Shown here: positions 21,148 through 51,601 of the stretch, piece after piece
Layout: each line of letters starts with the position of its first letter
Numbering within the stretch: the first letter of the stretch is position 1
IMG/VR virus record: IMGVR_UViG_3300037524_002067
Location: 1-64,000 of that record
Direction: 5' to 3' (one strand)
Length of the DNA stretch: 64,000 nucleotides
From: a virus
Notes under the pieces: model-generated
The model's database searches: none
Told to the model about the DNA's origin: nothing
What the model saw: only the letters and a program-made list of their open reading frames with translations
Position numbers and translations under genes: made by a program

Positions 21148-21209
21148 AACTATAAATAGTATGAAAAAAAGACGATAATAACAAACGAGCTAATTGTGTG
21201 TTAGTTTTG

Positions 21210-21296
21210 AGAACATAGTCAGATTCGAACTGACGAACAAATTACTTTGTATAACGGTTTTGCAGACCGCTGACTTAACCACTCATCCATATGTTC
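21210..21296 (-). tRNA. tRNA-Cys(GCA) with long variable arm
   Basis: GCGGT-CTGCAAA-ACCGT; variable stem ACAAA-GTAA-TTTGT. Confidence 0.85.
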
Positions 21297-21300
21297 GTTG

Positions 21301-21373
21301 AGACACCTGAGAGATTCGAACTCCCGTAGCATGGGTTGCGACCATGAACCTGTAACCACTCGGCCAAGGTGTC
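21301..21373 (-). tRNA. tRNA-Cys(GCA)
   Basis: CATGG-TCGCAAC-CCATG (C33 variant); U73. Confidence 0.8.
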
Positions 21374-21405
21374 ATATTCAGGTGCCACTTCTGACACCTG
21401 AGATT

Positions 21406-22314
21406 TTAAGCAGCTTTTTTGTTTTTGTTCTTTTTGTACTTACCTGCTCTACGCGATTTCTTTTGTTTATCACAAACGAAGTCTGCAGCGCAATTAGCGG
21501 CCCAGCTGTGTGGCTTATACCTTACTCTGAAACCTTGACCTTCTAAAGCAGCCTTCGCTCCTTCGTAAACATATGAAGATTTATTCTTCACATCTTTGTT
21601 GGTCATAGAAGCAAGGTAGCTTCTAAGTTTAGCTGGTTGTGTAAGTTGAACATTCATTACATATTCCAACTCAGATTCGCTGATGTCATTCAACGAAAGA
21701 GTGTTTGTAGGATTTGTAACATTTATCAACCTGTCATTCTTTTCATCAATGAAGTATTGTCTTCCCTTGATAAGAACCTTGCCCTGAAGATCCTCTGGGA
21801 TTTTAAAACCAGGGTCGATGTTAATATCTACGTCAAGTCCAATCAACTTATTTTGGTGAGATGAATATCCAAGAGTTTGCAATTCTTCCATATTCAATCT
21901 CTTTACAAGACCATCCAATTCTTTTTCAAGGTAATTACCAAGATAAAGAACACGCTCAACTTCACCCCAGATCTTTCCATAGATGCTGGATTCTTTTGCA
22001 GCTTTTACAAGCGCCTTGTCTCTGTTTTTATCACCAGTCTTTTCAACCCATAATCTTTCGCTAGGTACAAGTTCTTTATTAAAGATGTAATGTACACCAT
22101 CACGTCTGAACTCGTCGTAAAACGCAACTACGGAAGCGTAAAGAGTATTTCTACCACGTTCAGAAGCATCAGCTCCTACGTAAACTTTTGTTCCAGGGAA
22201 CTTCTTTAAATAGCTCCGAACATATTCTCCAAGGTCTGGGATTAATTCACCACCAAACTTCTTGAACCCTTTTTCCATTGGAATTTTTTCTTCCATTTTT
22301 TCTACTGTTTTCAT
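21406..22314 (-). CDS. RNase H-like (YkuK/DUF458-type) protein
   Basis: VYVGADAS, DVDIN, KSS and KPHSWAANCAAD motifs. Confidence 0.7.
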   Translation of the reverse strand: MKTVEKMEEKIPMEKGFKKFGGELIPDLGEYVRSYLKKFPGTKVYVGADASERGRNTLYASVVAFYDEFRRDGVHYIFNKELVPSERLWVEKTGDKNRDKALVKAAKESSIYGKIWGEVERVLYLGNYLEKELDGLVKRLNMEELQTLGYSSHQNKLIGLDVDINIDPGFKIPEDLQGKVLIKGRQYFIDEKNDRLINVTNPTNTLSLNDISESELEYVMNVQLTQPAKLRSYLASMTNKDVKNKSSYVYEGAKAALEGQGFRVRYKPHSWAANCAADFVCDKQKKSRRAGKYKKNKNKKAA

Positions 22315-22323
22315 AAATATATC

Positions 22324-23139
22324 TCAATTTTTCACCATTTCCAATATTCCATAATTTTTGCACCACTTTCTTACAGCATTATCACTGACACCAAAATGTT
22401 TACCTACTTGTACAAAGTTTTTAAATTCTTCAAATGCTTTTAAAATTTCTGGCACCTTCGGAATTTTACTCTGTTCTTTTCTTGCATCTCCAACACAAGC
22501 AATACTACAATACAGTGATCCTATTCTTTTACAATCTTTACCACATTGTTTGCATTTGTTTTTTTCTTTAGGTGTTTTAGGCGTTTTTATTTTTGTTGTT
22601 TTTGCTTGTTTGTTTTTTAATACATTGTCTTTATTTTCAAAATTTTCTTTTCTCATCTCCGACTTAAAACTTAGCGTGTTTTTACCTCTATAGTTATCTT
22701 CCTGAGCGTGACAATTTGGGCAAAGTATCTTTAAGTTTTCAATTCTATTATCCGTGTTGTTTCCATTTTCGTGATGGAGTTCTGTTGGTATTTTTTTATA
22801 TTGCCACAAAGTCAATAAACAAGATTCACATTTTTCTTCTTTTAAACCTTCTATAATTAATCTATGTTTTAATTTGGTAGAATTTTTATAAGGAGAATTT
22901 TCAATTAAAATTTCTTCTAGTTTGTATTTCTTACCAAAATGTTTATAATTATCGCCATTGTTCCAACCTTGACCAGTGAAGTGAGAAATATCTACATTTA
23001 ATTCTTTAAATAAAAAATTTAAAGTCTTGTAGTTGCCTCCAGATGGTCGTATTTTTAATTCTCTACAAACTCCAGCAACTGATATATTATTTTTAATCGC
23101 TTCTCTTAATTGCTCTTCGTTGTATTTGTTTATTTTCAT
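22324..23139 (-). CDS. HNH homing endonuclease with HTH
   Basis: ELHHENGNNTDNRIENLKILCPNCH; C-terminal GVSDNAVRKW HTH. Confidence 0.9.
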   Translation of the reverse strand: MKINKYNEEQLREAIKNNISVAGVCRELKIRPSGGNYKTLNFLFKELNVDISHFTGQGWNNGDNYKHFGKKYKLEEILIENSPYKNSTKLKHRLIIEGLKEEKCESCLLTLWQYKKIPTELHHENGNNTDNRIENLKILCPNCHAQEDNYRGKNTLSFKSEMRKENFENKDNVLKNKQAKTTKIKTPKTPKEKNKCKQCGKDCKRIGSLYCSIACVGDARKEQSKIPKVPEILKAFEEFKNFVQVGKHFGVSDNAVRKWCKNYGILEMVKN

Positions 23140-23232
23140 GCTTTTTTATTATAAATAGTATGAAAAATCAAAAAAGAAGACTTAAGATTTAATATTATTT
23201 TTAAGTCTTCTTTTTTGATAAAACTCAACAAG

Positions 23233-23315
23233 TAGGGTAGGAGGGAGTCGAACCCTCACGGACTATGCCACAAATTTTTAAGATTTGCACGTGCTGCCTA
23301 TTTCGTCACTACCCC
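23233..23315 (-). tRNA. tRNA-Leu(TAA)
   Basis: CAAAT-CTTAAAA-ATTTG; class II variable arm. Confidence 0.9.
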
Positions 23316-23340
23316 ATAATTCAAAGAACATTTTATTTCA

Positions 23341-23374
23341 AAAAAAAAGGACCCAGATTTAAGTCTGAGCCCTT
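23341..23374 (-). terminator. Attenuator terminator of the Leu/Cys array
   Basis: AAGGGCTCAGA-CTTAAA-TCTGGGTCCTT followed by a U tract. Confidence 0.85.
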
Positions 23375-23402
23375 TTATCAAAAAAATACTTTTTATAGAT
23401 AC

Positions 23403-23516
23403 CTAAGAACTCAAACATAACGGTGCGCATAAACACAAAAAGCCATACCCTAGATCTGTTTTCACAGAAATAGATGGACTCATTGACCACGCTGTTATAT
23501 TTTGATTTCTTTTCAT
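23403..23516 (-). CDS. Attenuator leader peptide 2 (MKRNQNITAWSMSPSISVKTDLGYGFLCLCAPLCLSS)
   Basis: TTG TGT TTA TGC GCA CCG TTA TGT TTG run; GTTTGAGTTCTT can pair with the terminator 5' arm. Confidence 0.8.
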   Translation of the reverse strand: MKRNQNITAWSMSPSISVKTDLGYGFLCLCAPLCLSS

Positions 23517-23589
23517 CTTTTATAAATAAGCGGAAAAATTTCTTTTTCCAACACACAAATGTAATACTTTATTTTTTAATTTACAACAA

Positions 23590-23618
23590 TTATACGAAAT
23601 ATTTTTTAAAAGGTTGCA
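23590..23618 (-). promoter_or_regulatory. TGCAAC-N16-CGTA promoter (TACATTTG element downstream at 23556-23563)
   Basis: Recurrent motif pair in this window. Confidence 0.6.
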
Positions 23619-23821
23619 TTTTTTATTAATCCGTAAACGCTTTATAAGGTTCCCAACCCATTAACTCATAATGTTGCCTCATACAATCATCTATGTCTTT
23701 GCCAACAATTTCTCTAAGTTTTATAGCATCAGGTTCTAAAAGTTTTTTAGATCTTTCATCACCTTTTTCAACAACAGTTACACTATTGTTGGATTCTGCT
23801 GTGTAGATTTCTATTGTCATG

Positions 23822-24262
23822 TTATTGTTTTAAAATTGATTTTCTCTCAAAATCATCTTTTATTATTTGTTGTATTTTTTCTTTGGTGTAATCTTCGTTA
23901 TGTTCTTCAAGATGACAATTTGCACAAAGAATTATACATTTTTCCAATTCACTTAATAAAGTTGTTACCTTATTGTTACCCATGCTTCTAAGATCTAATT
24001 TTATTTTCTTTTCACTTGGATTCAGATGATGAAATTGTAACGCTGCCAAATTTTTATCATAACCACATTTCGAACAACAACCGCCTTTTAATTCTAACAT
24101 TTCGAGCTTTCTTCTATATGCTCTTATTGTTTGAGAATGATATGTATTGGTTTGCTCTTTAACTCTATGCCAATGATGTTTTTGCTTACATGTATTACTA
24201 CAATATTTTGTTTTTTGTCCATTAATTTCAACTGAACACACTACACATTTTCTAATATTCAT
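23822..24262 (-). CDS. Zn-finger + HNH endonuclease
   Basis: CSKCGY...LQFHH...LCANCH. Confidence 0.85.
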   Translation of the reverse strand: MNIRKCVVCSVEINGQKTKYCSNTCKQKHHWHRVKEQTNTYHSQTIRAYRRKLEMLELKGGCCSKCGYDKNLAALQFHHLNPSEKKIKLDLRSMGNNKVTTLLSELEKCIILCANCHLEEHNEDYTKEKIQQIIKDDFERKSILKQ

Positions 24263-24320
24263 AATTTTTCATTATAAATAGTTAGAAAATTATGAAGCTA
24301 TTCATAATCAACTAATTTTG

Positions 24321-24394
24321 TGCTCCAGCCGTGATTCGAACACGGGACCTCAGCCTTATGAGGGCTTCGCTCTAACCAACTGAGCTACAGGAGC
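24321..24394 (-). tRNA. tRNA(CAT), probably Ile2 (otherwise elongator Met)
   Basis: Loop CTCATAA; lies at the end of the Ile cluster. Confidence 0.8.
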
Positions 24395-24401
24395 TAGGAA
24401 T

Positions 24402-24653
24402 TTACTCTTTCCATTGAGTGTTTCTATTGTATTTCCAAGTTTTATATTCCCTGGTCTTGTACACATACACTGGCCTTCCACTTCCATGTCTTCCTTTTGA
24501 GCGCATGCTTTGAGGAGAACAGTCTATATAAAAAGAACCACTTCTTTTAGCACAAATGTAACAATAATCGTGATAATAATGTTTAGCGATTTTTGTATAC
24601 TCTCTGCTTGTTTTTGCTTTGTTCAGTTTAGCTCTGTTTCTGTTTATTGACAT
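24402..24653 (-). CDS. Small basic protein
   Basis: K/R-rich, CxxC, ends YKTWKYNRNTQWKE; start codon is sequestered in a hairpin. Confidence 0.65.
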   Translation of the reverse strand: MSINRNRAKLNKAKTSREYTKIAKHYYHDYCYICAKRSGSFYIDCSPQSMRSKGRHGSGRPVYVYKTREYKTWKYNRNTQWKE

Positions 24654-25294
24654 CGGTCATCGTTTTAGGGATTAACCTAACGACATCCAGATGCATATTT
24701 AAAAGTATTATTCATTTTTAAAAATTTATTTTTCACACTCAATTTCATGTTCTTCAATATCTTCAAAAGAAAATTTTTGATGGCATTTCAAACACATCGC
24801 AGAATTATTCCAATCCCAATCTGGTTGACCAAAACTATCTTCAAGCGGCTCTATTTTTTTCTTAGTTAAAGCTTTCAAGCACATCATAAAAAAATCAGCT
24901 TGCTCCTGGGTTTTGATCACCTTGCTAAGTGAAGTTTCTATTGGTTTTTCTTTTGACCAATCCACTTTTATCCCCTTAGTTTTTGCAAGCTCAATTATTT
25001 CATTAATCTTTTCTTGAACTTTTTGTTTGCTCAAATCTTTTTTCATGTTTCAAAGATACAAAAAAACTAGAACTTTAAGGTTTTAATGTAATATTTTCTT
25101 TTTTAGAATCACTGTAATAACTCACAGAATCCCCCTCAATTAATTTTTTAATTTGAGTAGCAGCGTCTTGAAAATCTTTTTTATAATGCTCAAGCTCAAT
25201 GCCACGTATAAATGTGGAACTCACAATAAGATCCACAATTTGTTCTTCTGTAATTTCTGTTTTCATAAAACAAATATAACAAATTATTTTCTTG

Positions 25295-25395
25295 TGAACA
25301 AGACGGGATTTAAACCCGTACATGGAGGTTGCAACTCATCCCTTTATCCATTCCAGCTATCCGTCTGGTGCGTCTGTCGTTTCCGCCACTTGTTC
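25295..25395 (-). tRNA. Atypical tRNA-like RNA (GAT in an 8-nt loop, very long variable region)
   Basis: Acceptor GAACAAG/CTTGTTC-A; T arm ACGGG-TTTAAAT-CCCGT. Confidence 0.5.
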
Positions 25396-25404
25396 TTTTA
25401 TTTG

Positions 25405-25482
25405 TGCGGATGGAGGGAATTGAACCCCCGACTGCTTCCCAAGGTATAAGCTTGGCGCTCTTGACCACTGAGCTACACCCGC
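25405..25482 (-). tRNA. tRNA-Ile(TAT)
   Basis: CCAAG-CTTATAC-CTTGG. Confidence 0.85.
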
Positions 25483-25488
25483 ATTTTG

Positions 25489-25572
25489 TAGTGACGGCGG
25501 GGATCGAACCCACGTTGACATTTCTGTCCCATCTTATCAGGATGGTGCCTCAAACCACTCGGCCACGTCACT
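25489..25572 (-). tRNA. tRNA-Ile(GAT) with long variable arm
   Basis: CCATC-CTGATAA-GATGG; variable stem GACA-GAAA-TGTC. Confidence 0.85.
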
Positions 25573-25652
25573 ATTTTTCCTATTAACTCTTCCACACTCT
25601 AACGTGAGTGGGTTGACAGAACTTCGGAGAGAATTTCTTCTCGTTCAGTTAG

Positions 25653-25726
25653 TAGTCATAGACGGACTCGAACCATCAACCTCCACGGTATCAGCGTGGC
25701 GCTCTAACCAATTGAGCTATACGACT
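25653..25726 (-). tRNA. tRNA-Ile(GAT)
   Basis: CCACG-CTGATAC-CGTGG. Confidence 0.9.
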
Positions 25727-26044
25727 ATGTGGGGGAAGCTTTGACATAGTGCATATGATATTGTCATCACTTTTTTATATTCCGCCCCTTCGGGTTTATC
25801 TCACATTTGTGAAAGAACGATATTTCTTAAGTTTTCAAGACTAAAATCTTGAACATTTTTTGCAAAAAACATTCTGTAGCTTTCGTTTTGATTCAAAGGA
25901 AACACTGTTATTACAACACTCCCAAATCTGGTGTGTTGTAACCAAACTCTTCTGAATCTATCTGCAAAAGAAGCAGCCAACTCCTTTTGTCTTTCATTCA
26001 TATTTACACTGTTCAAACTTTCCATTTTATTCCTTTATTTTAAG

Positions 26045-26130
26045 TCCCCCTGGTTGGATTCAAACCAACGATGGATTTTTACATCTCCATGTTAAAAGCA
26101 TGGTGCTATCGGTCACTAAGCGACAGAGGG
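26045..26130 (-). tRNA. tRNA-Lys(TTT) with long variable arm
   Basis: CCATG-CTTTTAA-CATGG. Confidence 0.85.
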
Positions 26131-26145
26131 TTATTTTATTTTTAG

Positions 26146-26218
26146 TTCCCCTGTCGTGAATCGAACACGACCAATCGCCTTAAGAGGGCGGAGCATACAG
26201 CCAGTTTGCTACAAGGGA
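26146..26218 (-). tRNA. tRNA-Lys(CTT)
   Basis: CGCC-CTCTTAA-GGCG. Confidence 0.85.
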
Positions 26219-26232
26219 ATATTTATTTTATG

Positions 26233-26305
26233 TTCCCCCGCTTGGAATCGAACCAAGCCTGAACGGGTAAAAACCGTTTGCCTACAGCCAGTTTGCTACG
26301 AGGGA
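26233..26305 (-). tRNA. tRNA-Lys(TTT)
   Basis: AACGG-TTTTTAC-CCGTT. Confidence 0.85.
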
Positions 26306-26408
26306 ATAATGATGAGATCATTGAACTCGTAGTTTACTGTACGAGCTCTTATCTTTTCTTCTGTTTATATTTGAACATTTTTTTCATTTTTATTTTTTTA
26401 TTTTCTAG

Positions 26409-26481
26409 AGCTGTAGTTCGGGCTCGAACCGAAAACCTTCTGATTACAAATCAGAGGCACCACCAATTGTGCTACTACAGC
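26409..26481 (-). tRNA. tRNA-Thr(TGT)
   Basis: TCTGA-TTTGTAA-TCAGA. Confidence 0.9.
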
Positions 26482-26491
26482 GTGTTTTTTG

Positions 26492-26576
26492 AGCCTATGG
26501 AGAGATTCAAACTCCCGATGGATTATTAGTCTCCTGCTTACAAGGCAGGTGCAATCGTTCACTATGCGACATAGGC
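26492..26576 (-). tRNA. tRNA-Thr(TGT) with long variable arm
   Basis: CCTGC-CTTGTAA-GCAGG. Confidence 0.85.
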
Positions 26577-26599
26577 AATATTTTATTTTAAAGAACTTG

Positions 26600-26670
26600 A
26601 GCCCGTAACGATTATGACATCGTGACCTTCAACGTACCAAGTTGATGCTCTCCAACTGAGCTATACGGAC
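26600..26670 (-). tRNA. tRNA-Thr(GGT) with aberrant T loop
   Basis: TCAAC-TTGGTAC-GTTGA. Confidence 0.75.
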
Positions 26671-26673
26671 TTT

Positions 26674-26767
26674 TGGGTGTACGATGGGATTTGAACCCAT
26701 GTTGTTTGCTTACGCTCTTCCTGCTTCACAGGCAGGTTCCTTCGACCATACTCGGACCACGCACACC
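26674..26767 (-). tRNA. tRNA-His(GTG) with long variable arm
   Basis: CCTGC-CTGTGAA-GCAGG; G-1:C73; encoded CCA. Confidence 0.85.
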
Positions 26768-26852
26768 ATGTTTGCCTGTTCCCGTTTCCAGTTAGAGGAC
26801 TTTGGCCAGAGTTTTTATGATGAGGAAAACTCGTAGGCAATTAAAACCAATC

Positions 26853-26930
26853 GGGGCAACAAAGAGGAGTCGAACCTCAAGCAACTAGTATATGGTACCA
26901 CTAAGGTACCTGCGCTCCACAGCTGCTGCC
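26853..26930 (-). ncRNA. Atypical tRNA-like RNA
   Basis: Acceptor GGCAGCA/TGTTGCC, T arm GAGG-TTCGACT-CCTC, GGTAC-CTTAGTG-GTACC hairpin; non-standard D region. Confidence 0.45.
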
Positions 26931-26936
26931 ATAACG

Positions 26937-27012
26937 GGTAACATATCGGGTTCGAACCGATTACCTCTTGAACCACAATCAAGCGCTCTAAACCAATTGA
27001 GCTAATGCTACC
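26937..27012 (-). tRNA. tRNA-His(GTG)
   Basis: CTTGA-TTGTGGT-TCAAG; G-1. Confidence 0.9.
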
Positions 27013-27016
27013 ATAT

Positions 27017-27163
27017 TTGTTGACGGAAATCGCACCAGCGATACGTGCTCTACCTTTGAGCTACACCCCCATTGTGAATTATTTGTGGGGGCGACGGGAC
27101 TCGAACACCGCAACCACGACTTTATAAGAGTATAGAAGTAGCATGACACATGGCCGTCAACAA
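27017..27163 (-). ncRNA. YrlA-type Y RNA (circularly permuted tRNA module)
   Basis: Terminal stem TTGTTGACGG/CCGTCAACAA; order is T arm, loop-closed acceptor CGCCCCCA...TGGGGGTG, then D arm. Confidence 0.75.
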
Positions 27164-27204
27164 TTTTTTCAATATTTTAATTTACAAAGAACGTTTTCTT
27201 TTTG

Positions 27205-27295
27205 CTCATTGGGTTGGATTTGAACCAACTTCTTCCTAGTCTAATGTTTCAAGACCAACCGACCATTCCTGCAGGGACCTTGGCCTAACCAATGA
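27205..27295 (-). ncRNA. Atypical tRNA-like RNA
   Basis: Acceptor TCATTGG/CCAATGA-G, T arm GTTGG-TTCAAAT-CCAAC, enlarged D and anticodon loops. Confidence 0.5.
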
Positions 27296-27303
27296 ATTTT
27301 TTG

Positions 27304-27375
27304 CTGCTCTGACAGGACTTGAACCCGTATTTATCTGTCTAACAAACAGTCGTTTTCCATTATTACTACAGAGCA
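27304..27375 (-). tRNA. Divergent tRNA-Asn(GTT) overlapping the HNH stop codon
   Basis: CTGT-TTGTTAG-ACAG; G73; weak D stem. Confidence 0.6.
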
Positions 27376-28139
27376 ATGTTTTTTATTTTTTCACTTACAC
27401 CTTTTTCTCTTAACTCTTCATGTATTTCTATGTGACAATTAGCGCAAACCAAAATACATTTATCTACTTCAATTTTTAATTTTTCAAAAGAATACGATTT
27501 ACCACCAATGGTGAAATCTTTTTCTTCTGGGTTTTTATGATGAAACTGCAAAACATTTGTAGACTTATTATATCCACAACATTCACATTTGCCACCTTTG
27601 TATTCTACTAACTTTATCTTAGTACGTTTACGCCATTCAATTACAGTCTGACTTTTTGTAACTGTTGGTTTTCGCACTATAATATTTTCTTCTCCAATTA
27701 TTTTCCTTACAGTTTGAACCGCTAGGCCAAAATAATAAGCTGTTTTTTTTAAAGATCTACTTTCAAAATAATGCCTTTTTAAAACATCGCTGTCAATTGT
27801 GGTTGCGTTGATATTTTTTGAAGACGCATTTAGTCTAAGGTGTGCACATATTTTTCTTAATTTATCATCTACAATTGATACTTTTTTTGAAATGCTGTTG
27901 TAAGAATCTCCAGAAATTCTCATTGCACGTATTTCACAGATAGTATCTTCTGATATATTTTTTAAAAAAACATCTTCTTTTACTTTTTTTAACCAACCTA
28001 ATGTGCCACCCAAATTTTCGTTGTTGACATGATACGAAACAGTAGATTTAGAACAACCTATTTGTTTAGAAATCTCATCAATAGAAAAACCATTTTTTCT
28101 AAGGTGTATTATTTTTTCTTTTTTAGAACCTTTTCCCAT
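27366..28139 (-). CDS. HTH + HNH endonuclease
   Basis: IGCSKSTVSYH HTH; CECCGY...LQFHH...VCANCH. Confidence 0.9.
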   Translation of the reverse strand: MGKGSKKEKIIHLRKNGFSIDEISKQIGCSKSTVSYHVNNENLGGTLGWLKKVKEDVFLKNISEDTICEIRAMRISGDSYNSISKKVSIVDDKLRKICAHLRLNASSKNINATTIDSDVLKRHYFESRSLKKTAYYFGLAVQTVRKIIGEENIIVRKPTVTKSQTVIEWRKRTKIKLVEYKGGKCECCGYNKSTNVLQFHHKNPEEKDFTIGGKSYSFEKLKIEVDKCILVCANCHIEIHEELREKGVSEKIKNIAL

Positions 28140-28199
28140 AATATTAACTTTTTATATTAATAAATAGAAAGAAAATTCTAATTTTCAATGAACGTTTTG

Positions 28200-28286
28200 C
28201 GTACCCTCCTGGATTCGAACCAGGGATGGAGATTTCCTCACGGCAGATTAACAGTCTGCTGCCTTTAACCACTCAGCCAAAGATAC
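28200..28286 (-). tRNA. tRNA-Asn(GTT) with long variable arm
   Basis: GCAGA-CTGTTAA-TCTGC. Confidence 0.85.
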
Positions 28287-28291
28287 TTTTG

Positions 28292-28364
28292 CGGGGGTGG
28301 GGAATTTCGAAATCACCGACCTCGATCTTAACAGGATCTTGCTCTGCCTCTGAGCTACACCCCC
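28292..28364 (-). tRNA. tRNA-Asn(GTT)
   Basis: GATC-CTGTTAA-GATC; G73. Confidence 0.85.
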
Positions 28365-30030: not shown

Positions 30031-30750
30031 TTATTCTATAATTTTTATTTGATCTTTGTTGAAAACGACATATTCATTGCCATTTGGCACTGTACTGTTT
30101 GGTGCTATAACACCATCATACCCATTTTCTTGCAATATTTTTGTAAAAGAATATGGGTTTAATATTTCGCTTATTCTAATTGGTAAGCCAGATATACCAT
30201 ACACTTCATATAATATTTTTGAAATTATCATGCTTTTTACATGTTTTTTGTTGGCTAATTCAGCTTCAGTTCTGTTATAAATTGTATAATCTTCTCCGTC
30301 ATATTCGAAATACACATGTTGGAAAGGTTCAATTGATCCTTTCATGAATTCCGCAGGAATATTTTTTGATTCTAGCTCTAAAACAATCTCATTTAGTTCC
30401 GACATTGTTTTACCCTCAAACTTAACATCTTTTAAACCACTTGTATTTGCAAACAACCTTACGATCCCACTACCTCCAATTGAAGTGTCTTTTACAATGT
30501 CTAATCTAAATGGTTTATTTAATTCTATTATTGCTTTTACTATTTTGTTTCCATATAAACCAGCTTCAATTTTTGAATCGCTGAAATAAAAACCATAGCC
30601 ATTCCAAGCGCCATCCGTGTTACTCCCTATGTAGTCGTTGCTAAAATCTTTAAAATTACTATTGGTTCCATGGAAAACAGTGAATTCTTCTTCGCTAATA
30701 ATTCCAGCAAGAGATTTTAAACGATTCTTATAGGTCTCTGATAAAATCAT
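30031..30750 (-). CDS. ADP-ribosyltransferase-like (ART-PolyVal type) protein
   Basis: FHGT...GFYFS...GYDGVI...EYVVF. Confidence 0.7.
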   Translation of the reverse strand: MILSETYKNRLKSLAGIISEEEFTVFHGTNSNFKDFSNDYIGSNTDGAWNGYGFYFSDSKIEAGLYGNKIVKAIIELNKPFRLDIVKDTSIGGSGIVRLFANTSGLKDVKFEGKTMSELNEIVLELESKNIPAEFMKGSIEPFQHVYFEYDGEDYTIYNRTEAELANKKHVKSMIISKILYEVYGISGLPIRISEILNPYSFTKILQENGYDGVIAPNSTVPNGNEYVVFNKDQIKIIE

Positions 30751-32136: not shown

Positions 32137-34926
32137 TCATCTACTAATACCTTTACCTTGATTTACATAATATCCTATATTATCTGCGTTTTTAAGCTGT
32201 TCTGAAACTGCTTTAAATAAGGCTTTGCCAGCGACGCTTAAATTGCCACCTGGTTTTCCATCTCGCATGTTTTGACAATAAATTCTAACTTCTTTTACTG
32301 CTTTAGCTGTTTGAAATTTATCTGTTGCGTTGTTCACAATATCTCTTGCATAAACATCAAGGTATCCAAGAATTGCCGAATGAACTTGCGCACTTTGAGA
32401 TTGCTCTATATTTGGTTTAACCTGATTATCTATTGGCTTATTTTGACCCATGGCAATAGAAGTCACTAAGGAGAGAGCTGCAATCAAATTCTGCGCCCAA
32501 CCCTCTTCAATCTTTTTTTTCTTTTCAGGTAAAGCAACAAACGCCTCAACTTCTGTTTCTCCATTTGCAAGCCTAACCGAACATCTGTTATATCCATCGA
32601 GCAATATTCCATCAACAACCACTGGCTCATTGTGTAAATCGTCTTCGTGTGGCCCCTCATTATTTTCGATATCGGAATCATATCTACCACCTTCTTTTTG
32701 GTATGCCTCATAGTATTCTTTAAAACTTGCATCGCTATTTAATAAATCAATCAAAGATATTTTTTGTATTTTAAAACTTCTGTGAGCTATCAAATTTTTC
32801 ATAAAATAATCTGGCAGATCATTAGAGTCTGGTGTAATATTTCTTATATGGTTATTTACATCTCTACCTGAAAAAATCCAATCGCCGTTAATTTGCTTTG
32901 CTTCTCTTAAACTAACTTTATGATAATGATTAGAGTAAACATCTTCAGTAAGACCAAAATCAACTAAAACAATTGCGTCTTGTCCACCTCTTTTTACAAT
33001 TCCATATGAGTTTAATCTTTGTAAATCTCCAATTGGAAGATCATAGCCTCTTATAAAATTAAAAATAGAATATACAAACTCATCTTCCCACATTTGTTTT
33101 ACAATCTCAGGGTCAACATCCATTTCATAATTTGGTTTACCTTTTGCTTTAACCTGATTGCCATAATTATTTATTGCAGCACAATAATCCTTAAAAGAAA
33201 AACCAACAATTCTTTCGAAATCTTCTTTAGATGCTGGTCTTGCTAATTCCATTTCCACCCACAAATTATCTTCATCGTATTCAAACACTTGTGCCAAAAC
33301 ATCTTTAATGTCATAATAATTAGAATATTGTATTTCGACTTCATTTTGAGCTATACCCTTACCATTCTTTGCTAGTTTCAACACCTTATCGTTATCAATT
33401 TTATAAACTATCCTTGAAGAGCCTGCTGCTAACCTCTGTAAATTGCTTTGACAATACTGAATACGCTGCTTAAAAGTTTTAAGAGCTTTAAAATAATTCA
33501 TGTCAAAATGTTGCGGATATTCTTCGTCTATTACAATTTCGTTTACTGTATCTATTTTTTTGAGCAAATGTTTTTCAATAAAATTTATAACTCTTTTTAT
33601 ATCATTCACAGAATAAAATTCGCCAATTATATTTCCATCTGCATATAACAAGTATGAATTTTTATTCATTCCAGTTTTTGTATCTTTTCTAATTAAACCT
33701 ACGGCAACTCTTAAATCAATACCATTTAAATTTTTTCTAGCAACAGGATTATCATAATTGAACAGGTTTGTTCTTATATCTTTGTTGGCATTTCCAAAAC
33801 GTACAACACCTGGAGGAAGATAATTTGATTCTATTTCTTTTTTTAAATCCAACGCTTGTTGTTTATTTAAAAACCCACCCTCAATTCCATTCTTATTTAA
33901 AACACTATTAATTTTGTCAATATTTGCCGCAACAACATTTTGTAAAACAAAAGATTCTTTAATTGTGTTTTTTACTATATCTCTTAACTCGTTTTTGCTT
34001 TCAACATAATGCTCGTAATGTTGTATCAATTGATTGTCATTTAAATAATATTTTACATTTTCAGGAGTAAAATTTACAATTTCCCTACCCTTAATTTCTA
34101 TACCATCATAACCAAGTTTAAGCATTTCTTGTTCAATAGAAGTATTGGCTTTAAATTCTCTTGCGTCTTTGTATTTTTTAAAAATCAAATTTTGTTGAAT
34201 CCATATCTCGGCAATATTGGCATCTCTAAAAACCATAGGGTTCTTTGGTTTTCCATTAACAACATAATAAACTGTTCCATACCCTTTTGCCATTGTTTTG
34301 TTGCTAAGCGGTACCATATATAAACCTCTACCAAATCTTGCACTTGAACCGTTGGCGACATCTAGTGTAGAATCTGAAGATATGCCTCTATAAGTCACAT
34401 TTTTTCTTTTCCATTTTTTATATTCAGCCATGCTAGGATCATATTCCTCTTCTTTGAATATGTTTTTATTCGATGAATCCCACTCACCTTTATTTTTTAC
34501 AGATTTCAACTGATTTGGTTCAAACACAAAACCGTCGAAATGACCATCTTTACCTGACAATATCGCCCCATCATAACCTAAACCTTTCAATTGACCAAGA
34601 CCATACTTTTCATATTCTTCCCAGCCAGCTGGATTTTGAATTGATGCGTATAGCTCCATGATATGACCACTACCTGCAGCCCCAACTTCTCCAGCTTCAA
34701 TTGCTGACTTGTTTGATGTGAACCATATGATCGGCTGGACCGACTTTTTTATGTTAAATTTACTGAACTTTTTGCTGGTGCCATGATAAACAACAATGGG
34801 CACCCCACCAGAGGAAACCTTACTACTGCCAAACCAAGCCTTAAAATTGTCATTTAGATTATTTAATACTGGTTCAACTGCTTCTTTTAAAATTTGATTT
34901 ATGAATTTTCTAAGTTCAAATGACAT
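32137..34926 (-). CDS. Polyvalent protein (two ART-like domains, kinase-like domain, ParB-like domain)
   Basis: YHGTS..GYDG; YRG..GRGLY..GYDG; GSSRIVY..LKLAKN..GDL..VLVDFG; PVVVDGILLDGYNR. Confidence 0.65.
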   Translation of the reverse strand: MSFELRKFINQILKEAVEPVLNNLNDNFKAWFGSSKVSSGGVPIVVYHGTSKKFSKFNIKKSVQPIIWFTSNKSAIEAGEVGAAGSGHIMELYASIQNPAGWEEYEKYGLGQLKGLGYDGAILSGKDGHFDGFVFEPNQLKSVKNKGEWDSSNKNIFKEEEYDPSMAEYKKWKRKNVTYRGISSDSTLDVANGSSARFGRGLYMVPLSNKTMAKGYGTVYYVVNGKPKNPMVFRDANIAEIWIQQNLIFKKYKDAREFKANTSIEQEMLKLGYDGIEIKGREIVNFTPENVKYYLNDNQLIQHYEHYVESKNELRDIVKNTIKESFVLQNVVAANIDKINSVLNKNGIEGGFLNKQQALDLKKEIESNYLPPGVVRFGNANKDIRTNLFNYDNPVARKNLNGIDLRVAVGLIRKDTKTGMNKNSYLLYADGNIIGEFYSVNDIKRVINFIEKHLLKKIDTVNEIVIDEEYPQHFDMNYFKALKTFKQRIQYCQSNLQRLAAGSSRIVYKIDNDKVLKLAKNGKGIAQNEVEIQYSNYYDIKDVLAQVFEYDEDNLWVEMELARPASKEDFERIVGFSFKDYCAAINNYGNQVKAKGKPNYEMDVDPEIVKQMWEDEFVYSIFNFIRGYDLPIGDLQRLNSYGIVKRGGQDAIVLVDFGLTEDVYSNHYHKVSLREAKQINGDWIFSGRDVNNHIRNITPDSNDLPDYFMKNLIAHRSFKIQKISLIDLLNSDASFKEYYEAYQKEGGRYDSDIENNEGPHEDDLHNEPVVVDGILLDGYNRCSVRLANGETEVEAFVALPEKKKKIEEGWAQNLIAALSLVTSIAMGQNKPIDNQVKPNIEQSQSAQVHSAILGYLDVYARDIVNNATDKFQTAKAVKEVRIYCQNMRDGKPGGNLSVAGKALFKAVSEQLKNADNIGYYVNQGKGISR

Positions 34927-35346
34927 ACCAATAAATAGTTTTTAAAAGCAAAAAGCCGACCATCACAGATCGGCTTTAAGCTTCTTTTTTAGGACTTTTC
35001 TCTGTTCTTAACCCAGATGCCATCCTTAAGTTTGTAAACCCCTTGTTTAACCCATTTTCCATTTACCTGGAACATGTTTTCAAGGTGTATTACTGTAATT
35101 TTCCAAACTTTTGGAAAACGGCTCAATGCCGTATATTCCTTAGCCAGTTGGATGGCTTCTTGTTCTGCGATCTCTCTGTCTTTGTTACCAGGAGTACTGG
35201 TTTCAACCCAGAAAGAGGGGGCGTTAGCGCCAGTAACACTGGTTAGCTGTACCCTCCATAGGCGTGTTTTGTTGTTCATAAGAACATTGTTGACAATTAA
35301 TCAACAACGACCTAAGAACTATTAATATGTGTATTTCTTTTCATTA

Positions 35347-36030
35347 TTATTTCTTCAGCAATTCTAATTTACCTTTCATGAATTGTTTAAGACTTGTTTC
35401 TTTTCCAGTTTCATGATCAATAACTCTATCGTCTTTTTCACGATACGTTCTTTTTTTGTCTGACCTTTCACCACTTCCTATTTGAGAATTACGTAAATAG
35501 TTCTGATTCTTAACTCGATTATCTTCAAAAATTTTTTTCAGTTTTTCAGTTAATCTTTCCCAAGCGATTACTTCATTTTTTTCACGATCTCTAGAACCTT
35601 CAGATCTTATTACAATTCCAGAAGGGTGATGTATTAGTTGAACACATGATTCGACTTTGTTCACATTTTGTCCTCCTTTACCTCTACTTCTTACATAATT
35701 TACTGTAACTTGATTTTTATCTAAGAAAAATTTTTCTTTCTCGTCAGTTGATAAAATTGCTACACTTAAAGTAGAAGTATGAATTCTACCACCTCTTTCA
35801 TTTGGCGGAATTCTGCACCAAGAATGAACCCCGATTTCATTTTTAAAGAACTCTTTTACACCATTTCCAGTCAGTCAAATTGATACTAAACCAGGAGTTC
35901 AGTGCTCACTGCTAACAACAAAATTATTGTTTTTGGCTGCTTTAATATACATAGCCGCCATATCCTTAACTAACATTTTCGAATCGTCACCTCCCGTGCC
36001 AATGCGAATTTCAAAAACAATGGTTTCCAT
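35347..36030 (-). CDS. prfA: RF1-like class I release factor (no N-terminal domain) with two in-frame UGA codons
   Basis: One frame: EIRIGTGGDDS ... TGA (35899-35901) ... TGA (35875-35877) ... NEIGVH..RIPPNERGGRIHTS ... GKGGQNVNKVES ... GSGERSDKKRTY. Confidence 0.85.
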
Positions 36031-36137
36031 AGCTATAAATATACATCTTTTTTAAATAAAAATCAAATTATTTATATAGTCTTTATGTTGACCATCGAGA
36101 CAATTTTTCAACTATGTATATTTAAAAAACACATAGT

Positions 36138-37330: not shown

Positions 37331-38069
37331 GTCATTTATACGTATTAAATTAAAAAAGATTGCATCAAAGCTGCCTTTTTGGGTGGACTGTTGGTAAATC
37401 TTGGGCTATAGTCTTGGCAGAAATATTTTTTATAACTGGAAATTGGATATCCTCAAATTTTATTTTTGTTGGCTCATAGACAATAACTGGTCTTTTTATA
37501 AAGACATCATTTTTATAATCGTAATCTTCCCCATTTATAACCCAATATCTAGAATATTGAGTTGCTGTAACTCCTTTTTTGGTTACATATTTATTAAAAA
37601 ATCCATGCACAAAATCATGCCCACCTCCAACGTGATAAAAATATTCATTTCCAAATTTAAAATCAGTTTTTTGCTTTTCCTTTAAATTTGCAATCGCTTC
37701 TCTTAATTCTCTTTCAGTGTCTTCTTGATATTTATAATCAAGATGAAAAGTTGGTTTATCATTTTTATTATCTTCCATTATACAAAATTTGCTTTGTTCT
37801 TAGTTATAATATAATGACTTTGACATCCATGTCTATGCGCTAAAGAAGGTGCCACTGTAACCCTTCCGCTATTGTCTGTTTCAATAGTCCAACCATCATT
37901 TTTTCCATCACCCACTCCATTAATAGAATTAAGATTAATATAGGTATCCATGCCGCACCCGCAAAAACACTTGTGTTTAGCCCCCATAAATTCTTTGCTA
38001 ATATAAAGTTTCCCTTCTTCGCACAAATCATTTGCTGGAAGATATTCTTCACACCACACTGGCTCTATT

Positions 38070-38765
38070 TCAACTTGTTTTATTGTTTTCATTCATTATT
38101 TTTTCTAAAATATCCGTTTCTTTCAGAATCTGATCCCATTTTTCTTTTTTCATTTTCTTTCCATAATCAGATGTAAATTCTGCAGCTGCAAGAAACTTTT
38201 TTTGACCTTGTATAAAATCTTGGACGCTAATATTGAGTTCGCTTGATAACCCCATAATAGCTTGTTGGAACCAATTGTATTCTAACACTTGCATTATATC
38301 TGCGTCACGAATAATTCTTTGATATTTGTCTAAATCTTTCGATTCAATGATATAAGGATACTGAGTTGCATCAAGAAGATTGTCCACAAATTCAATGTTT
38401 TCATCTGTAACATCAATATTTTCATCTTTTATAAATTTTTTGATACCAGTTTTTGCGTCGGCCACATTTTTATCATCTTTGTGTTTACCAGCAGAATGGT
38501 TATAATCATGCATGATCGCGGCAATCATTGTCCACTTTGCATTTCTACCATCTAACAACCCTTCTGTTTTTAAGCCATAATAAACATGCCTCAATACAGT
38601 TAATAAGTGGTTTAAGTTGTGATAAGGAGCATAATTAGAGGTGTTGTTCTTCACAATATATTTTAAGGCTTTTTTTAGAAAGTCATATTTATCTATAATT
38701 TCCAAAACAGATAATTCTTGTTCTTCCAAACCAGCAAGATTTTGCATTTTATTTTTTTCGTTCAT
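38070..38765 (-). CDS. HD-domain phosphohydrolase
   Basis: YHNLNH, MHDYNH and RDAD motifs. Confidence 0.8.
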   Translation of the reverse strand: MNEKNKMQNLAGLEEQELSVLEIIDKYDFLKKALKYIVKNNTSNYAPYHNLNHLLTVLRHVYYGLKTEGLLDGRNAKWTMIAAIMHDYNHSAGKHKDDKNVADAKTGIKKFIKDENIDVTDENIEFVDNLLDATQYPYIIESKDLDKYQRIIRDADIMQVLEYNWFQQAIMGLSSELNISVQDFIQGQKKFLAAAEFTSDYGKKMKKEKWDQILKETDILEKIMNENNKTS

Positions 38766-39342
38766 TTTTTTTTAATTCAGAAATACATACTTGTAAAGGA
38801 TCCACTCCATATTCAAAAATTACTTCATATAATTTAGAATAATCAAATAACTTGTTTTTTAAAACACCTTTTTGAATTTTAGATTTATATAAACATCTTA
38901 ACAAATTATCATTTAAGGCAAATTCAAAATCTCTATTTATAATAGCTACCGATTTTTTGTGCCAACGTTCTTCCCAATTACTTTCCATTGTAACTAAACA
39001 ACCTATTTTGTGTATCAATTAAAATCTTCGTCATACTCTTTAGCTTCTTCTCCAGGTAAATAAAAACGATCTTTATCGTAATTCCAATGCCTACCATCAT
39101 ATATGCTCAAAGCAATCCAAAAGCCTAAAAGTTCTAGATTTAAATAAAAACCCGCATGATCACATTTGCGAGTTAATTTTAAAACAATAAAAAACCAACT
39201 CCAGTCCTTGTGGATTCCACCTTCAAATTCAATTGCCTTGTTTTTTCCTAACTTATTATAAAAACAAAAGTGATTATCCATAAAAGGACTCTTAAAAAAT
39301 TTCATATCACAAAGATAAGAAACCCAGACGAAATTTCAAAAT

Positions 39343-41136: not shown

Positions 41137-42048
41137 TCAAATATTTTTTTCATCCAAATCTTCATTTGAACCAAATTCATCATTGTCAATCAAATCAGAA
41201 TCCTCTAATATCATACCAATTTGTGGTTTTTCTTGTGGAACTTCAGTGGTATCTTTTTTTTCTACAACTGGTTTATCCTTTGAATCAAGTAAGATTAGGT
41301 TTTTAATGTGAGACAAAACCCTATCACCACTTTCTTTAAATCTTATATCTGCAAAACCTTTATCAACTTTTATAACAAAAGCCATATCGTCTATATATTT
41401 ACCAAGATATCTATGATCTTGCGAAGTCATTGCTTTTTCATCCAAACGTACCCAATCTCCATGTTTTAAATCTTTTAACAAAGATATTTTTTGAGTAGCC
41501 AAACGATTTTGGTAATAATTTCTAAAAAACTCTACCATAATTAGCTTACGATCATTAGAAAGAGGTTTTAATGGTTCGTCACTTTTTATTTCTTCTCTGT
41601 CCCACTTAGGACCTATCAACATAGCTGTAACACATATTTCTCCTATTGGACGAACATAATGCCATCCATCAATATGGGTCATATCATAATAAGCACCACC
41701 GTTTTCCAAAACAATTGTACATATTTTTGACGGTTCCTCAAGTCCTTTTCCATAACCAAGACCCATCTCATATTTTCCAGAAATTACATGCATAGCACTT
41801 GGCCAAGGATGCGGATGAAATAAAGCTTCTTCAGTTTTACATGCATGAATCCAATGTAAAAGCACTCTATAATTACCTATTTGAGCCCAAATGCGTTCTA
41901 CAATTGGCGGATGATAATCAATCATGATTGATTGCCAATTATTTGGGTCTTGTAAAAGCCCAAGCAAAACTTTATCTTCAATTTGTTGTAGTTTTTTTAT
42001 CATTTTTTTATTGTAACTTTGTGTCATAAATTTCGTATAAAGATACAA
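41137..42048 (-). CDS. Cupin-fold protein
   Basis: HPHPWPS...GKYEM...WHYV. Confidence 0.6.
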   Translation of the reverse strand: MYLYTKFMTQSYNKKMIKKLQQIEDKVLLGLLQDPNNWQSIMIDYHPPIVERIWAQIGNYRVLLHWIHACKTEEALFHPHPWPSAMHVISGKYEMGLGYGKGLEEPSKICTIVLENGGAYYDMTHIDGWHYVRPIGEICVTAMLIGPKWDREEIKSDEPLKPLSNDRKLIMVEFFRNYYQNRLATQKISLLKDLKHGDWVRLDEKAMTSQDHRYLGKYIDDMAFVIKVDKGFADIRFKESGDRVLSHIKNLILLDSKDKPVVEKKDTTEVPQEKPQIGMILEDSDLIDNDEFGSNEDLDEKNI

Positions 42049-47736: not shown

Positions 47737-48233
47737 AATTAAAAATGAAATTCTTTGTTTATATACTACTTTTTTTCAACCTCAACCTGATTGCGGCGCA
47801 AGAGTTTTGCGACTATTACGAAGACACAACAAAAATGCAATTGGTAAGAGTGGACATGAAAGAACAAATGAGAAACACTCTATTTGAGTGTTTAAAAAAT
47901 GGTGACATAAAAGATATCATGATATTTTTAGATCCTAGTCTAAACTTCATTTATGTAAAAGACACTTCAGTTATAAAAAATCAAATTGTCACCGAATATG
48001 AAGCTATAGAAATATTAAAAAATGTTGAAAAGGTTGATTACAATTTTTTTAAAATACAATATGATCTATATCATGATGGAAATTATATGATCATAGCTAG
48101 ATTATATAAATCAGATATGGAAATTATTCCACTAATGAACATTTACTTCATTTTCTCAAAATATAGCTTCGTTAAAGCCATTGCAGTGCAGTGGGGAATT
48201 ACAAAATAAACATACTGGGAAATTAAAAACTAG

Positions 48234-48318
48234 AAGCGGGGGTCAGATTCGAACTGACGTTCTCTTTCGAGTTAAAGGTTATGAGCCTTCGCTGGATCCA
48301 ACTCCAGTCGACCCCGCA
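48234..48318 (-). tRNA. tRNA-Met(CAT), initiator-like, with long variable arm
   Basis: 1:72 mismatch; loop CTCATAA. Confidence 0.75.
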
Positions 48319-48323
48319 ATTTG

Positions 48324-48468
48324 TTGCAATGGTTGGAATTGCACCAACTTTCTCTGACTTAGCGCCAGCGAGTTTTAGGTAGATAAATCCACAAACTACA
48401 AACACATATTACGTAATTCTATGTTTGCTAAAAGGATTCCATATAACCTTCTGTCTCTCTCCATTGCG
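48324..48468 (-). ncRNA. tRNA-shell RNA (acceptor and T arm with a large insert)
   Basis: CGCAATG/CATTGCA-A; T arm GTTGG-TGCAATT-CCAAC. Confidence 0.45.
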
Positions 48469-48481
48469 AGAGTTTGTTCTG

Positions 48482-48565
48482 TACCAGCGGTGGGACTCAA
48501 ACCCACAATACCACAGGGTATCCGCTTATGAGGCGGACGCAATTATCACATCTGCTCACACTGGC
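48482..48565 (-). tRNA. tRNA-Met(CAT) with long variable arm
   Basis: TCCGC-CTCATAA-GCGGA. Confidence 0.8.
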
Positions 48566-48606
48566 ATATTTATAGACACCATTATAATGTCTATAAATTT
48601 TTCTTG

Positions 48607-48877
48607 TTGAATAGACAGGATTTTAACCTGTGAACACGTTATGTGATCTGTGTTACACACAGACGGTTTTAACACTTACCTACTATCCATGACATGATTT
48701 CTCATTTACTAATACTGTTTCAATTAGATCGAGCGTTGCATGCCACGCCGAGAGAGTTCGTGTTTGGCGGATGTTATCTCACTCACAACTATCAACACTA
48801 TGTTTAGATGCTGGGATGTTTTGCATCCATCTTATCAATTACACTGAATGGTGAAGCACCAATTCCAGCATACTCAA
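48607..48877 (-). ncRNA. tRNA-shell RNA with a ~200 nt insert
   Basis: TTGAGTA/TATTCAA stem, D-like GCTGGAATTGGT, T arm ACAGG-TTAAAAT-CCTGT. Confidence 0.45.
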
Positions 48878-49025
48878 TATTTTCAAAACCATTTTCTTTG
48901 GTTATCAAAGACTCACTCTCGCTAATAGCTCCAGTAAATTTATCAAACCCTTTTTTGTTTTCAATCTTGCCAGTTGAAGGATTGTAATAAAATTAATTTT
49001 TACCTATTTATAATAAAACAATTTT

Positions 49026-49709
49026 ATGAAACCACTTTACACTACTAAAGAATTTAATTTAGCTAAATCTTTTGATAAATTACCTTGTGAATGCTATCAT
49101 TGTAAACAGCCATTTTTAATTTATAAAACTCGAATTGTTGATGTTTTAAGACCAAATAATAAAGTTAAAACAAAAGCAAAATATTGCTCAAAAGAATGCT
49201 CTTCAAAAGCTAGGAGTTTAAAAATAACCTATCAATGCCATCATTGCGGAAAGGAATGTGTTAAAAAAGCATCTCAAATCAAACTATCAAAATCAGGGTT
49301 TAATTTTTGTTCAAAACATTGCACATCTTCTTATCATATTAAACATAAAAACTACGGAACTAATCGTTCAAAACTAGAACAATGGATTGCTGAACAATTA
49401 ATTATAAAATATCCAGATCTTAATATTAAATACAACGATACTGAAACACTTAACGGATTAGAATTAGATATTTATATCCCATCCTTACAGATTGCTTTCG
49501 AATTAAATGGCGTTTTTCATTATGAGCCAATTTTTGGACAAGACAAACTTGACAAAACAATAAAAAAAGATAAGAACAAAATGAGCCTTTGTTTAGAAAA
49601 CAAAATTGATTTATGCATAATTGATACTACGTCACAAAAATATTTTAAAGAACATACTTCACATAAGTTTTTAGACATTATATTAAACATAATCCAACAG
49701 CGTTTATAA
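49026..49709 (+). CDS. Zn-finger + PD-(D/E)xK-type endonuclease
   Basis: Repeated CxxC and YCS..C; ELDIYIPSLQIAFELNGVFHY. Confidence 0.75.
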   Translation: MKPLYTTKEFNLAKSFDKLPCECYHCKQPFLIYKTRIVDVLRPNNKVKTKAKYCSKECSSKARSLKITYQCHHCGKECVKKASQIKLSKSGFNFCSKHCTSSYHIKHKNYGTNRSKLEQWIAEQLIIKYPDLNIKYNDTETLNGLELDIYIPSLQIAFELNGVFHYEPIFGQDKLDKTIKKDKNKMSLCLENKIDLCIIDTTSQKYFKEHTSHKFLDIILNIIQQRL

Positions 49710-50228
49710 TTTATTGAATTGAATTCTTAAATCATGGATCTTTCTTTGATAATCTGAAACACTGATTTCTTTGGTGTTTGACGTTTTCTTCGTCAACTCA
49801 CTACGCATTTCATCTTCCAAAAATTTAATCCTCTCCTGAAGTTTTAACTTCTTCTTTTCTTGATTTACCATCACGTTCTTTTTTTAGCTCATTAATTATT
49901 TCTTGTAACACAATTGCATGTCGAGCATACACAGTCATTTGTGCTTTTATTTTTTCTATATGATCTATGGTTGTTAATTTTGATTTTAATCTATAACCGT
50001 CTCCATCATCATTGTTTTGATTTTGCATTTGTTTCTCTTTCTTCTTTCTACCGCATTGTTATAATCTACAACACACGTATCAATGTCATCTTCATATATA
50101 CGACATTTAATTTTTAAATTGCTTATTACATAAAACATTGACATAAACATCAAAGCTACAATAAGCGTTTTTTCCTTTTTTCAATTTCAATTTTTCATTT
50201 TTTTGTTTTTTTTTATTTGTTTTTCTTG

Positions 50229-50301
50229 AGCAGAAGAGGAGAATCGAACTCCCGTCCACGACTTGGCAAGCCATTGTAATAAGCCACTATACGACTTCTG
50301 C
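50229..50301 (-). tRNA. tRNA-Gly(GCC)
   Basis: Loop TTGCCAA; U73. Confidence 0.85.
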
Positions 50302-50375
50302 AGGAACAACCTCAGTCAACATTTTGCTACGAGTTACTGACGTAGTTTGGAGTTAACCTCTGGTTGCATTTTTTG

Positions 50376-51059: not shown

Positions 51060-51120
51060 TGCTCTTTACTTTTATTATAAATATTGCCAAAAAAAGCAAA
51101 GTGCAATAAAAATGTTTTTG

Positions 51121-51575: not shown

Positions 51576-51601
51576 AAATAATTTTTTTGATTTAAATACG
51601 A

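Follow-up and report, generated by a model that had tools for sequence, protein, structure and literature searches.

A virus genome codes for an RF1-like class I release factor (RF) whose full-length product can be obtained only if two UGA codons are passed in frame 0, at codons 44 and 52 of the gene. We analysed the first 64 kb of that genome (this whole stretch of 64,000 nucleotides is called the window hereafter), the record being a single virus contig of 154,343 bp, with a GC content of 32%, genes mostly on the minus strand and a completeness of 59% as estimated by CheckV. The reading that we favour, at a probability of about 60% in view of the comparative sequence data, is that programmed readthrough of both UGAs gates a working RF1-type factor made of domains 2 to 4, and ties its synthesis to poor termination. 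Comparison of related genes indicates that the gate is under selection, and that it can be exchanged for a frameshift device known to respond to termination. Because the corresponding site of relatives contains either a stop or a prfB-style frameshift, we see there an expression gate rather than a broken gene. The features of the locus, and the arrangements of in-frame stops in related genomes, are collected in Table 1.

Table 1. Features of the release factor locus (positions in the window), followed by the in-frame stops of the readthrough-type genes and the genomes that carry them
Feature	Position	Strand	Remarks
RF1-like class I release factor gene without domain 1	35347..36030	-	227 codons + TAA
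In-frame UGA, codon 44	35899..35901	-	context CAC TGA ACT
In-frame UGA, codon 52	35875..35877	-	context ATT TGA CTG A
Recognition tripeptide PPN, residues 75-77	35800..35808	-	position of RF1 P184-x-T186
GGQ catalytic motif, residues 119-121	35668..35676	-	GKGGQ = residues 117-121
Promoter-like site TTGATT-17-TATATT	36038..36066	-	just upstream of RF start; consensus match only
Hairpin, terminator-like, weak T tail	35285..35309	-	between RF gene and next ORF
96-aa ORF, no assigned function	34989..35279	-	downstream of RF gene; syntenic in L002
Strong terminator-like hairpin	34952-34977	-	after 96-aa ORF
TGA44 + TGA52			window, L001-L003, LR745206
TGA44 + TAG52			L004-L006, three samples
TGA52 alone			L007, L008, LR756502
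TGA39 + TGA52			L017/18, LR756501, L060
TGA44 alone			LR756504
TGA at codon 44			L001-L006, L056, L059

Minus-strand translation of the gene yields a frame in which TGA44 and TGA52 are the only lesions. This confirms the description given by an earlier, sequence-only reading of the same DNA (an RF1-like frame with GGQ, PPN, two TGAs and nothing else amiss), which had further noted that domain 1 is absent. That observation is borne out by the NCBIfam prfA model, to which the product aligns over positions 105-333 of 347: as the match begins at position 105, domain 1 is missing. Pfam matches are to RF-1 and to PCRF, the latter in its C-terminal part. The product scores 182 bits with prfA, below both curated equivalog cut-offs (400 and 423), against 107 bits with prfB, 58 with prfH and 42 with ArfB. 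Its AF2 model (pLDDT 83) finds its best structural matches, according to Foldseek, in ribosome-bound RF1, with a TMq of 0.87 to Thermus thermophilus RF1 on the 70S ribosome. In this model both stops fall in a hairpin of domain 2, one where strand 38-45 ends and the other within strand 48-55. Aligned with the T. thermophilus protein, the product has D at E119, Cys at Q181 and PPN at P184-V-T186, which is not the PxT tripeptide of RF1 type. Homology to release factors crosses both stops in frame 0 with no gap, and an uninterrupted match of this kind is, on the alignments, beyond chance. The gene is also a mosaic (window 35350-36030): identity to the relative L001 amounts to 71% in the N-terminal third and 82% in the C-terminal third, but to only 26% in the GGQ domain, which is 62% identical to that of L003, a pattern that suggests a domain swap through recombination among sub-lineages.

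Relatives were sought in IMG/VR, in a phage collection and in metagenome contigs, with frames checked by tblastn, and the comparative set consists of 31 clade members readable as DNA. All 31 display a recoding signal within codons ~36-54, and none of the 29 other rows of the alignment (canonical RF1, other short RF1 forms, RF2) does. In the corresponding 60-row IQ-TREE phylogeny, a quick search with RF2 as outgroup and SH-aLRT as its sole support measure, all the recoded genes fall into a single clade on the RF1 side, with an SH-aLRT of 100 and a branch length of 1.0. Two forms of the gate are found within this clade. The readthrough type belongs to an AT-rich subclade of huge phages devoid of Shine-Dalgarno (SD) signals (support 98), where frame-0 homology continues beyond one or two in-frame stops located at codons 39, 44 or 52. 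Codon 52 is a stop in 13 of the 14 lineages of this type, mostly TGA, with TAG in L004-L006. The sequence-only reading had proposed to check homologues for conserved TGA or Trp at the two positions; the stops are conserved in the readthrough-type lineages, and where sense codons stand there they vary (Q, D, I, L or K at 44; S, R, Q, H, T or F at 52) and are never Trp. The remaining members, with a GC content of 42-68%, make a single switch from frame N to frame N+1. In 16 of them we find GGAGG-N3-CTT-stop, with TGA (10), TAG (5) or TAA (1) as the stop and the remainder of the product encoded in frame +1. A hybrid, L090, combines a TGA39 read in frame with a CTT TAG C +1 frameshift at codon 52, and the prfB-type frameshift feature is present in 17 relatives, not in the window. 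On a separate branch, L172 has an in-frame TGA near codon 36. SD usage is 20% at frameshift-type loci vs 7% at readthrough-type loci, a contrast weakened by spurious ORFs in GC-rich sequences.

Further afield, the top matches of a profile search of 1.8 billion representatives are dominated by canonical RF1. They include predicted genes truncated at codons ~37 and ~52-59, together with some apparently uninterrupted full-length short forms in protein libraries; several of these have W at 44 or 52, which at the protein level may stand for TGG or TGA, and come from Logan/ENA contigs of 1-2 kb. A second, uninterrupted RF1 family without domain 1 is visible in metagenome contigs (L067, L069, L092, L104, L111, L113, L118, L121); it is nearer to canonical RF1, with 307-352 bits to prfA, and some of its members lack the loop that bears the stops in the window's clade. 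In L017/L018 an extra -1 frame change occurs just before GGQ (CGC GGA AGG GTG GCC, around 6345-6354), with no obvious slippery site, and may reflect error, decay or further recoding.

The three segments delimited by the stops have low dN/dS values: 0.08-0.20 ahead of the gate (codons 1-43), 0.24-0.28 between the two stops (codons 45-51) and 0.06-0.18 beyond them (codons 53-95). From these ratios, the codons N-terminal to the stops are under purifying selection like the rest of the gene. Synonymous differences reach 0.5-0.9 per site; silent sites being near saturation, the gate stops have outlasted that saturation. The sequence-only reading had allowed for a pseudogene, to be betrayed by varied non-Trp sense codons at 44 and 52 together with relaxed selection: the varied codons are there, but selection is not relaxed. 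It had also allowed for assembly errors, an idea that we discard, as the same internal stops recur in independent assemblies, manually curated complete genomes included.

What follows the stops is distinctive. The next base is A in 13 and C in 12 of 25 internal stops, against T in 8, G in 6, A in 3 and C in 1 after the genuine TGA stops of the window's genome (Fisher p = 4e-8). When leucine comes after a gate stop, its codon is CTG or CTA in 11 of 11 independent cases, these two making up 9% of the leucine codons of the window's genome vs 65% for TTA and TTG. In Escherichia coli the leakiest stop signals are UGA-C and UGA-A, and UGA-CUA is a classic viral readthrough context. The gate stops sit in weak contexts. 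No conserved RNA structure was detected by RNAalifold near the stops (energy 0.0, z = 0.3). Other recoding routes were considered for the window's gene and rejected. A frameshift or a hop disagrees with a frame 0 that runs gap-free while frame +1 closes immediately, and a hop would further lack a matching landing codon and would skip the seven codons between the stops, which are conserved. Selenocysteine is rejected as well: no conserved structure of the SECIS kind follows the UGA, and TAG replaces TGA in one lineage.

The mechanism that we infer, with its readthrough, its inserted tryptophan, its sensing role and the later action of the factor, would run as follows. Host RF2 would normally terminate at codon 44 or 52, freeing a useless short peptide. 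Full-length factor would arise when a near-cognate tRNA beats RF2 at both UGAs, the likeliest reader being tRNA-Trp(CCA), encoded twice by the phage, presumably with insertion of Trp. With two stops in series, output should depend roughly quadratically on how often UGA is read through, so that the factor would be made when the termination capacity of the infected cell is poor. It would then probably supplement termination at UAA, which ends ~70% of phage genes. A release factor deprived of domain 1 keeps release activity and codon specificity, and loses stimulation by RF3 (PMC1586002); domain 1 being dispensable for the former yet needed for the latter, the product should be an RF3-independent release factor. 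The sequence-only reading had already proposed a termination sensor requiring passage of two UGAs: conserved stops, TGA/TAG interchange, weak contexts and prfB-type cassettes at the same site now lend it comparative support, with sensing itself as the interpretative step.

The readthrough gate would be the counterpart of the prfB-type +1 frameshift gate of the GC-richer relatives. In the window's genome, an SD-like core is found upstream of just 2 of 100 genes, and leaders are A-rich. This combination is in the style of Bacteroidota, in keeping with the predicted host of those huge phages in which the closest RF homologues occur (PMC7162821). In Flavobacterium johnsoniae, where the anti-SD sequence is sequestered, prfB frameshifting is ~7% efficient (PMC10798248), and such sequestration may be a reason why the SD-less subclade has plain stops. 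This suggests that SD-less, Bacteroidota-type systems might choose readthrough where others use SD-driven frameshifting. To be sure, several points weigh against double readthrough. The yield would be very low without a severe shortage of RF2; the product looks RF1-like, so that UGA would offer no direct self-feedback of the prfB kind; and the mix of TGA, TAG and TAA in the family is not what sensing of RF1 alone, or of RF2 alone, would lead one to expect. The apparently uninterrupted short forms of the protein libraries, the incomplete state of the window's genome, in which a tRNA(UCA) may have escaped notice, and the lack of a conserved RNA structure able to promote readthrough count against it as well.

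The recognition tripeptide of the 31 clade members is PPT in 26, PPN in 3, PDT in 1 and PST in 1 (PxT in 28 altogether), and Gln stands at the 181 position in 23, with a hydrophobic residue there in several relatives. The tripeptide rule, which reportedly goes back to work by Ito and colleagues in 2000, is the basis for predicting that PPT with Gln181 reads UAA and UAG; this prediction is uncertain, TGA being the commonest gate stop and the window's copy having PPN with Cys181. The clade might consist of RF1-scaffold factors with altered or broadened stop recognition, with which the phage could take over termination while host RF1 or RF2 is disabled, in which case the gate would be a true self-feedback. 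We regard this as doubtful; if true, it would provide the first autoregulated RF1-type factor.

The gate might also have a key, a UGA-reading tRNA of the phage that would translate the two TGAs at a defined moment, making the device a timer, not a sensor. ORFs of at least 100 aa under table 11 cover 86% of the 154-kb contig, and the 75 genes of at least 200 aa end with TAA (52), TGA (17) or TAG (6). Among the stretches left uncovered, in-frame TGA explains the RF gene alone. The use of TGA as a stop in neighbouring genes, claimed from the sequence at the outset, holds for five of them (32137-34926, 37365-37778, 38070-38765, 39015-39305 and 41137-42048), two of which have homologues in related phages that stop at the same place with TAA. 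In the 318-kb genome G004, 96% complete, table-11 ORFs cover 93.5% and long genes end with TAA (135), TGA (18) or TAG (17); this standard-code genome nonetheless has TGA44 and TAG52 in its RF gene. Both genomes use the standard code apart from their gated genes. For the window's genome, at 59% completeness, code 4 or any other reassignment is rejected on account of coding density, of genes ending in TGA, of an internal TGA restricted to the RF gene and of the failure to detect a tRNA(UCA). The sequence-only reading had envisaged a trigger or relic of code switching; in the face of the standard code of both genomes, of 17 TGA ends among 75 genes and of the lack of a detectable tRNA(UCA), that idea finds no support.

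ARAGORN and Rfam detect ~41 tRNA genes in the window's genome, among them two for tRNA-Trp(CCA) and one for tRNA(CUA). The search for tRNA(UCA), TCA in DNA letters, which the sequence-only reading had advised, returned none among these ~41 in a 59% complete genome, none in the closest relatives, G002 (38 tRNAs) and G001 (18 tRNAs), and no suppressor of any kind, tRNA(UCA) included, among the ~26 of G004. In the D arm of the phage tRNA-Trp, inspected for a Hirsh-type change, the 74-nt copy has an ordinary C11-G24 pair, which says little either way. The UGA-reading tRNA may of course lie in the 41% not covered by the contig, or be too unusual for tRNA finders. There is also a precedent in TGA-recoded Jade phages, in which RF1, TrpRS and a suppressor tRNA occur together (bioRxiv 10.1101/2021.08.26.457843), and a parallel in the same genome, where a gene gated by TAG lies close to the tRNA(CUA) gene (see below). 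However, the frameshift cassettes of the relatives require no suppressor, and a strong UGA suppressor would also lengthen the products of phage genes terminated by TGA, ~20% of the total. A timer of this kind strikes us as unlikely.

The tRNA complement has oddities of its own. Many species are paired, a copy of normal length being accompanied by a second one, 84-91 nt in size, whose variable arm is long, a feature unexpected for the amino acids concerned; tRNA-Trp comes in 74 and 86 nt. These genes lie at 20108-28364 and 48233-54707 in the window and 74684-76864 in the genome, and one gene, His(GTG) at 26676-26766, is overlooked by ARAGORN. At 219-350 of the window (minus strand), a 132-nt tRNA-like gene has an insert of ~58 nt after the anticodon arm; it reaches 43 bits in Rfam and is called Phe(GAA) with an intron by ARAGORN. 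G004 (L040, L044) has four tRNA-like elements (14840-14939, 15058-15158, 15385-15459 and 84518-84613), with common acceptor and T arms (AGTCAGG...CCTGACTA) and odd interiors that differ.

Stops could also act as a constitutive throttle, holding a potentially toxic release factor at a very low fixed level, with no sensing. In Bacillus subtilis fitness is lowered by RF2 overexpression, less so by RF1 overexpression (PMC12421855), and the weak stop contexts described above would allow a small steady leak. Yet a throttle based on stops inherently responds to release factor activity, and a weak start site would be a cheaper one; moreover, that relatives have converged on the cassette of prfB, whose role in feedback is known, favours regulation. 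We consider a fixed throttle improbable. The same must be said with more force of a factor that would itself read UGA, or all three stops, through altered decoding residues, and feed back on its own gate. The PPN and the Cys at the Q181 position of the window's copy, and the interchange of TGA, TAG and TAA in the gate among close relatives, speak for this; the prevalence of PPT and of Gln at the 181 position among the members, from which reading of UAA and UAG is predicted, and the lack of correlation between the type of gate stop and the decoding motif across the 31 members make it very unlikely. As for a decaying pseudogene, an error of sequencing or a product synthesized as several distinct polypeptides, two nonsense codons are the usual mark of the first, but the recurrence of identical stops, purifying selection on three segments all in one frame, a middle segment of 7 codons and the absence of any start codon for ~70 codons after the stops leave this hardly credible.

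Programmed readthrough thus remains our preferred account of the RF gene, which is not the only gated gene of this phage. Outside the window, TAG is the third codon of a gene for a PTH2-like peptidyl-tRNA hydrolase (genome 82392..82000, minus strand), and the tRNA(CUA) gene (genome 81480-81552, minus strand) lies 447 bases downstream of that gene. The pair is repeated in G002 (58503-58856 and 58020-58091). A UAG-gated PTH2 in addition to a gated release factor suggests that huge phages monitor several steps of host translation and switch on replacement parts of their own when required. Around the RF gene, the order RF, 96-aa ORF, 401-aa ORF and ART-PolyVal protein is common to L001 and L002, not to more distant relatives. 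Two proteins with ART-PolyVal ADP-ribosyltransferase domains are encoded just downstream of the RF unit (32137-34926 and 30031-30750, both on the minus strand).

How does this gate compare with known systems? Recoded phages have modules made of RF1 or RF2, a suppressor tRNA and an aminoacyl-tRNA synthetase, the module being in standard code while late genes are recoded (Borges et al., bioRxiv 10.1101/2021.08.26.457843). The window's phage likewise has a release factor and tRNA-Trp genes, as well as a UAG suppressor tRNA; by contrast, its genome is in standard code, with internal stops in the RF (UGA) and PTH2-like (UAG) genes only. Papers on huge and recoded phages cite phage RF1 and RF2, not interrupted RF genes (PMC7162821; bioRxiv 10.1101/2021.08.26.457843), and our literature search found no description of an interrupted RF1-like phage clade. 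PrfH and ArfB, which rescue stalled or damaged ribosomes, resemble the product in having a GGQ domain and no domain 1. It differs from them by its scores (58 bits against a cut-off of 167 for TIGR03072, 42 against 100 for ArfB) and by keeping an RF1-type codon-recognition loop, and RtcB, the partner of PrfH, was not found among the neighbours of the RF gene.

Viral UGA readthrough is another parallel. The A1 protein of phage Q-beta is made via tRNA-Trp, and alphaviruses and plant viruses use UGA-C and UGA-CUA contexts. As in these cases, the window's gate would rely on a leaky UGA followed by C or CUR and on a near-cognate tRNA as its reader. However, the known stops end one protein and give a minor extended form, whereas the two stops of the window lie early inside the sole functional frame.

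A close counterpart is bacterial prfB, the RF2 gene, which is autoregulated by a +1 frameshift at CUU UGA C, three nucleotides after an SD-like element. Here too, an early in-frame stop interrupts a class I release factor gene, and in both cases this means that product yield should drop when termination is efficient; in 16 relatives of the window's gene this very cassette occurs, as GGAGG-N3-CTT-stop. The differences are no less telling. The window's factor is RF1-like and devoid of domain 1, its gate sits in domain 2 at codons 44 and 52 and not in domain 1 at codon 26, two stops would be read in frame 0 with no frameshift, and the gate stop of the clade can be TGA, TAG or TAA, whereas TAG is absent from 8,164 prfB motifs (PMC12421855). 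The same 2025 survey, covering more than 12,000 genomes, knows programmed recoding for prfB and judges it not used by prfA (PMC12421855). Feedback through an internal stop, so far the textbook peculiarity of prfB, would thus extend to a whole clade of phage RF1-type genes, with gates of two interchangeable forms (in-frame stop or +1 frameshift) and all three stop codons, which makes this clade a natural series for studying how termination efficiency is sensed.
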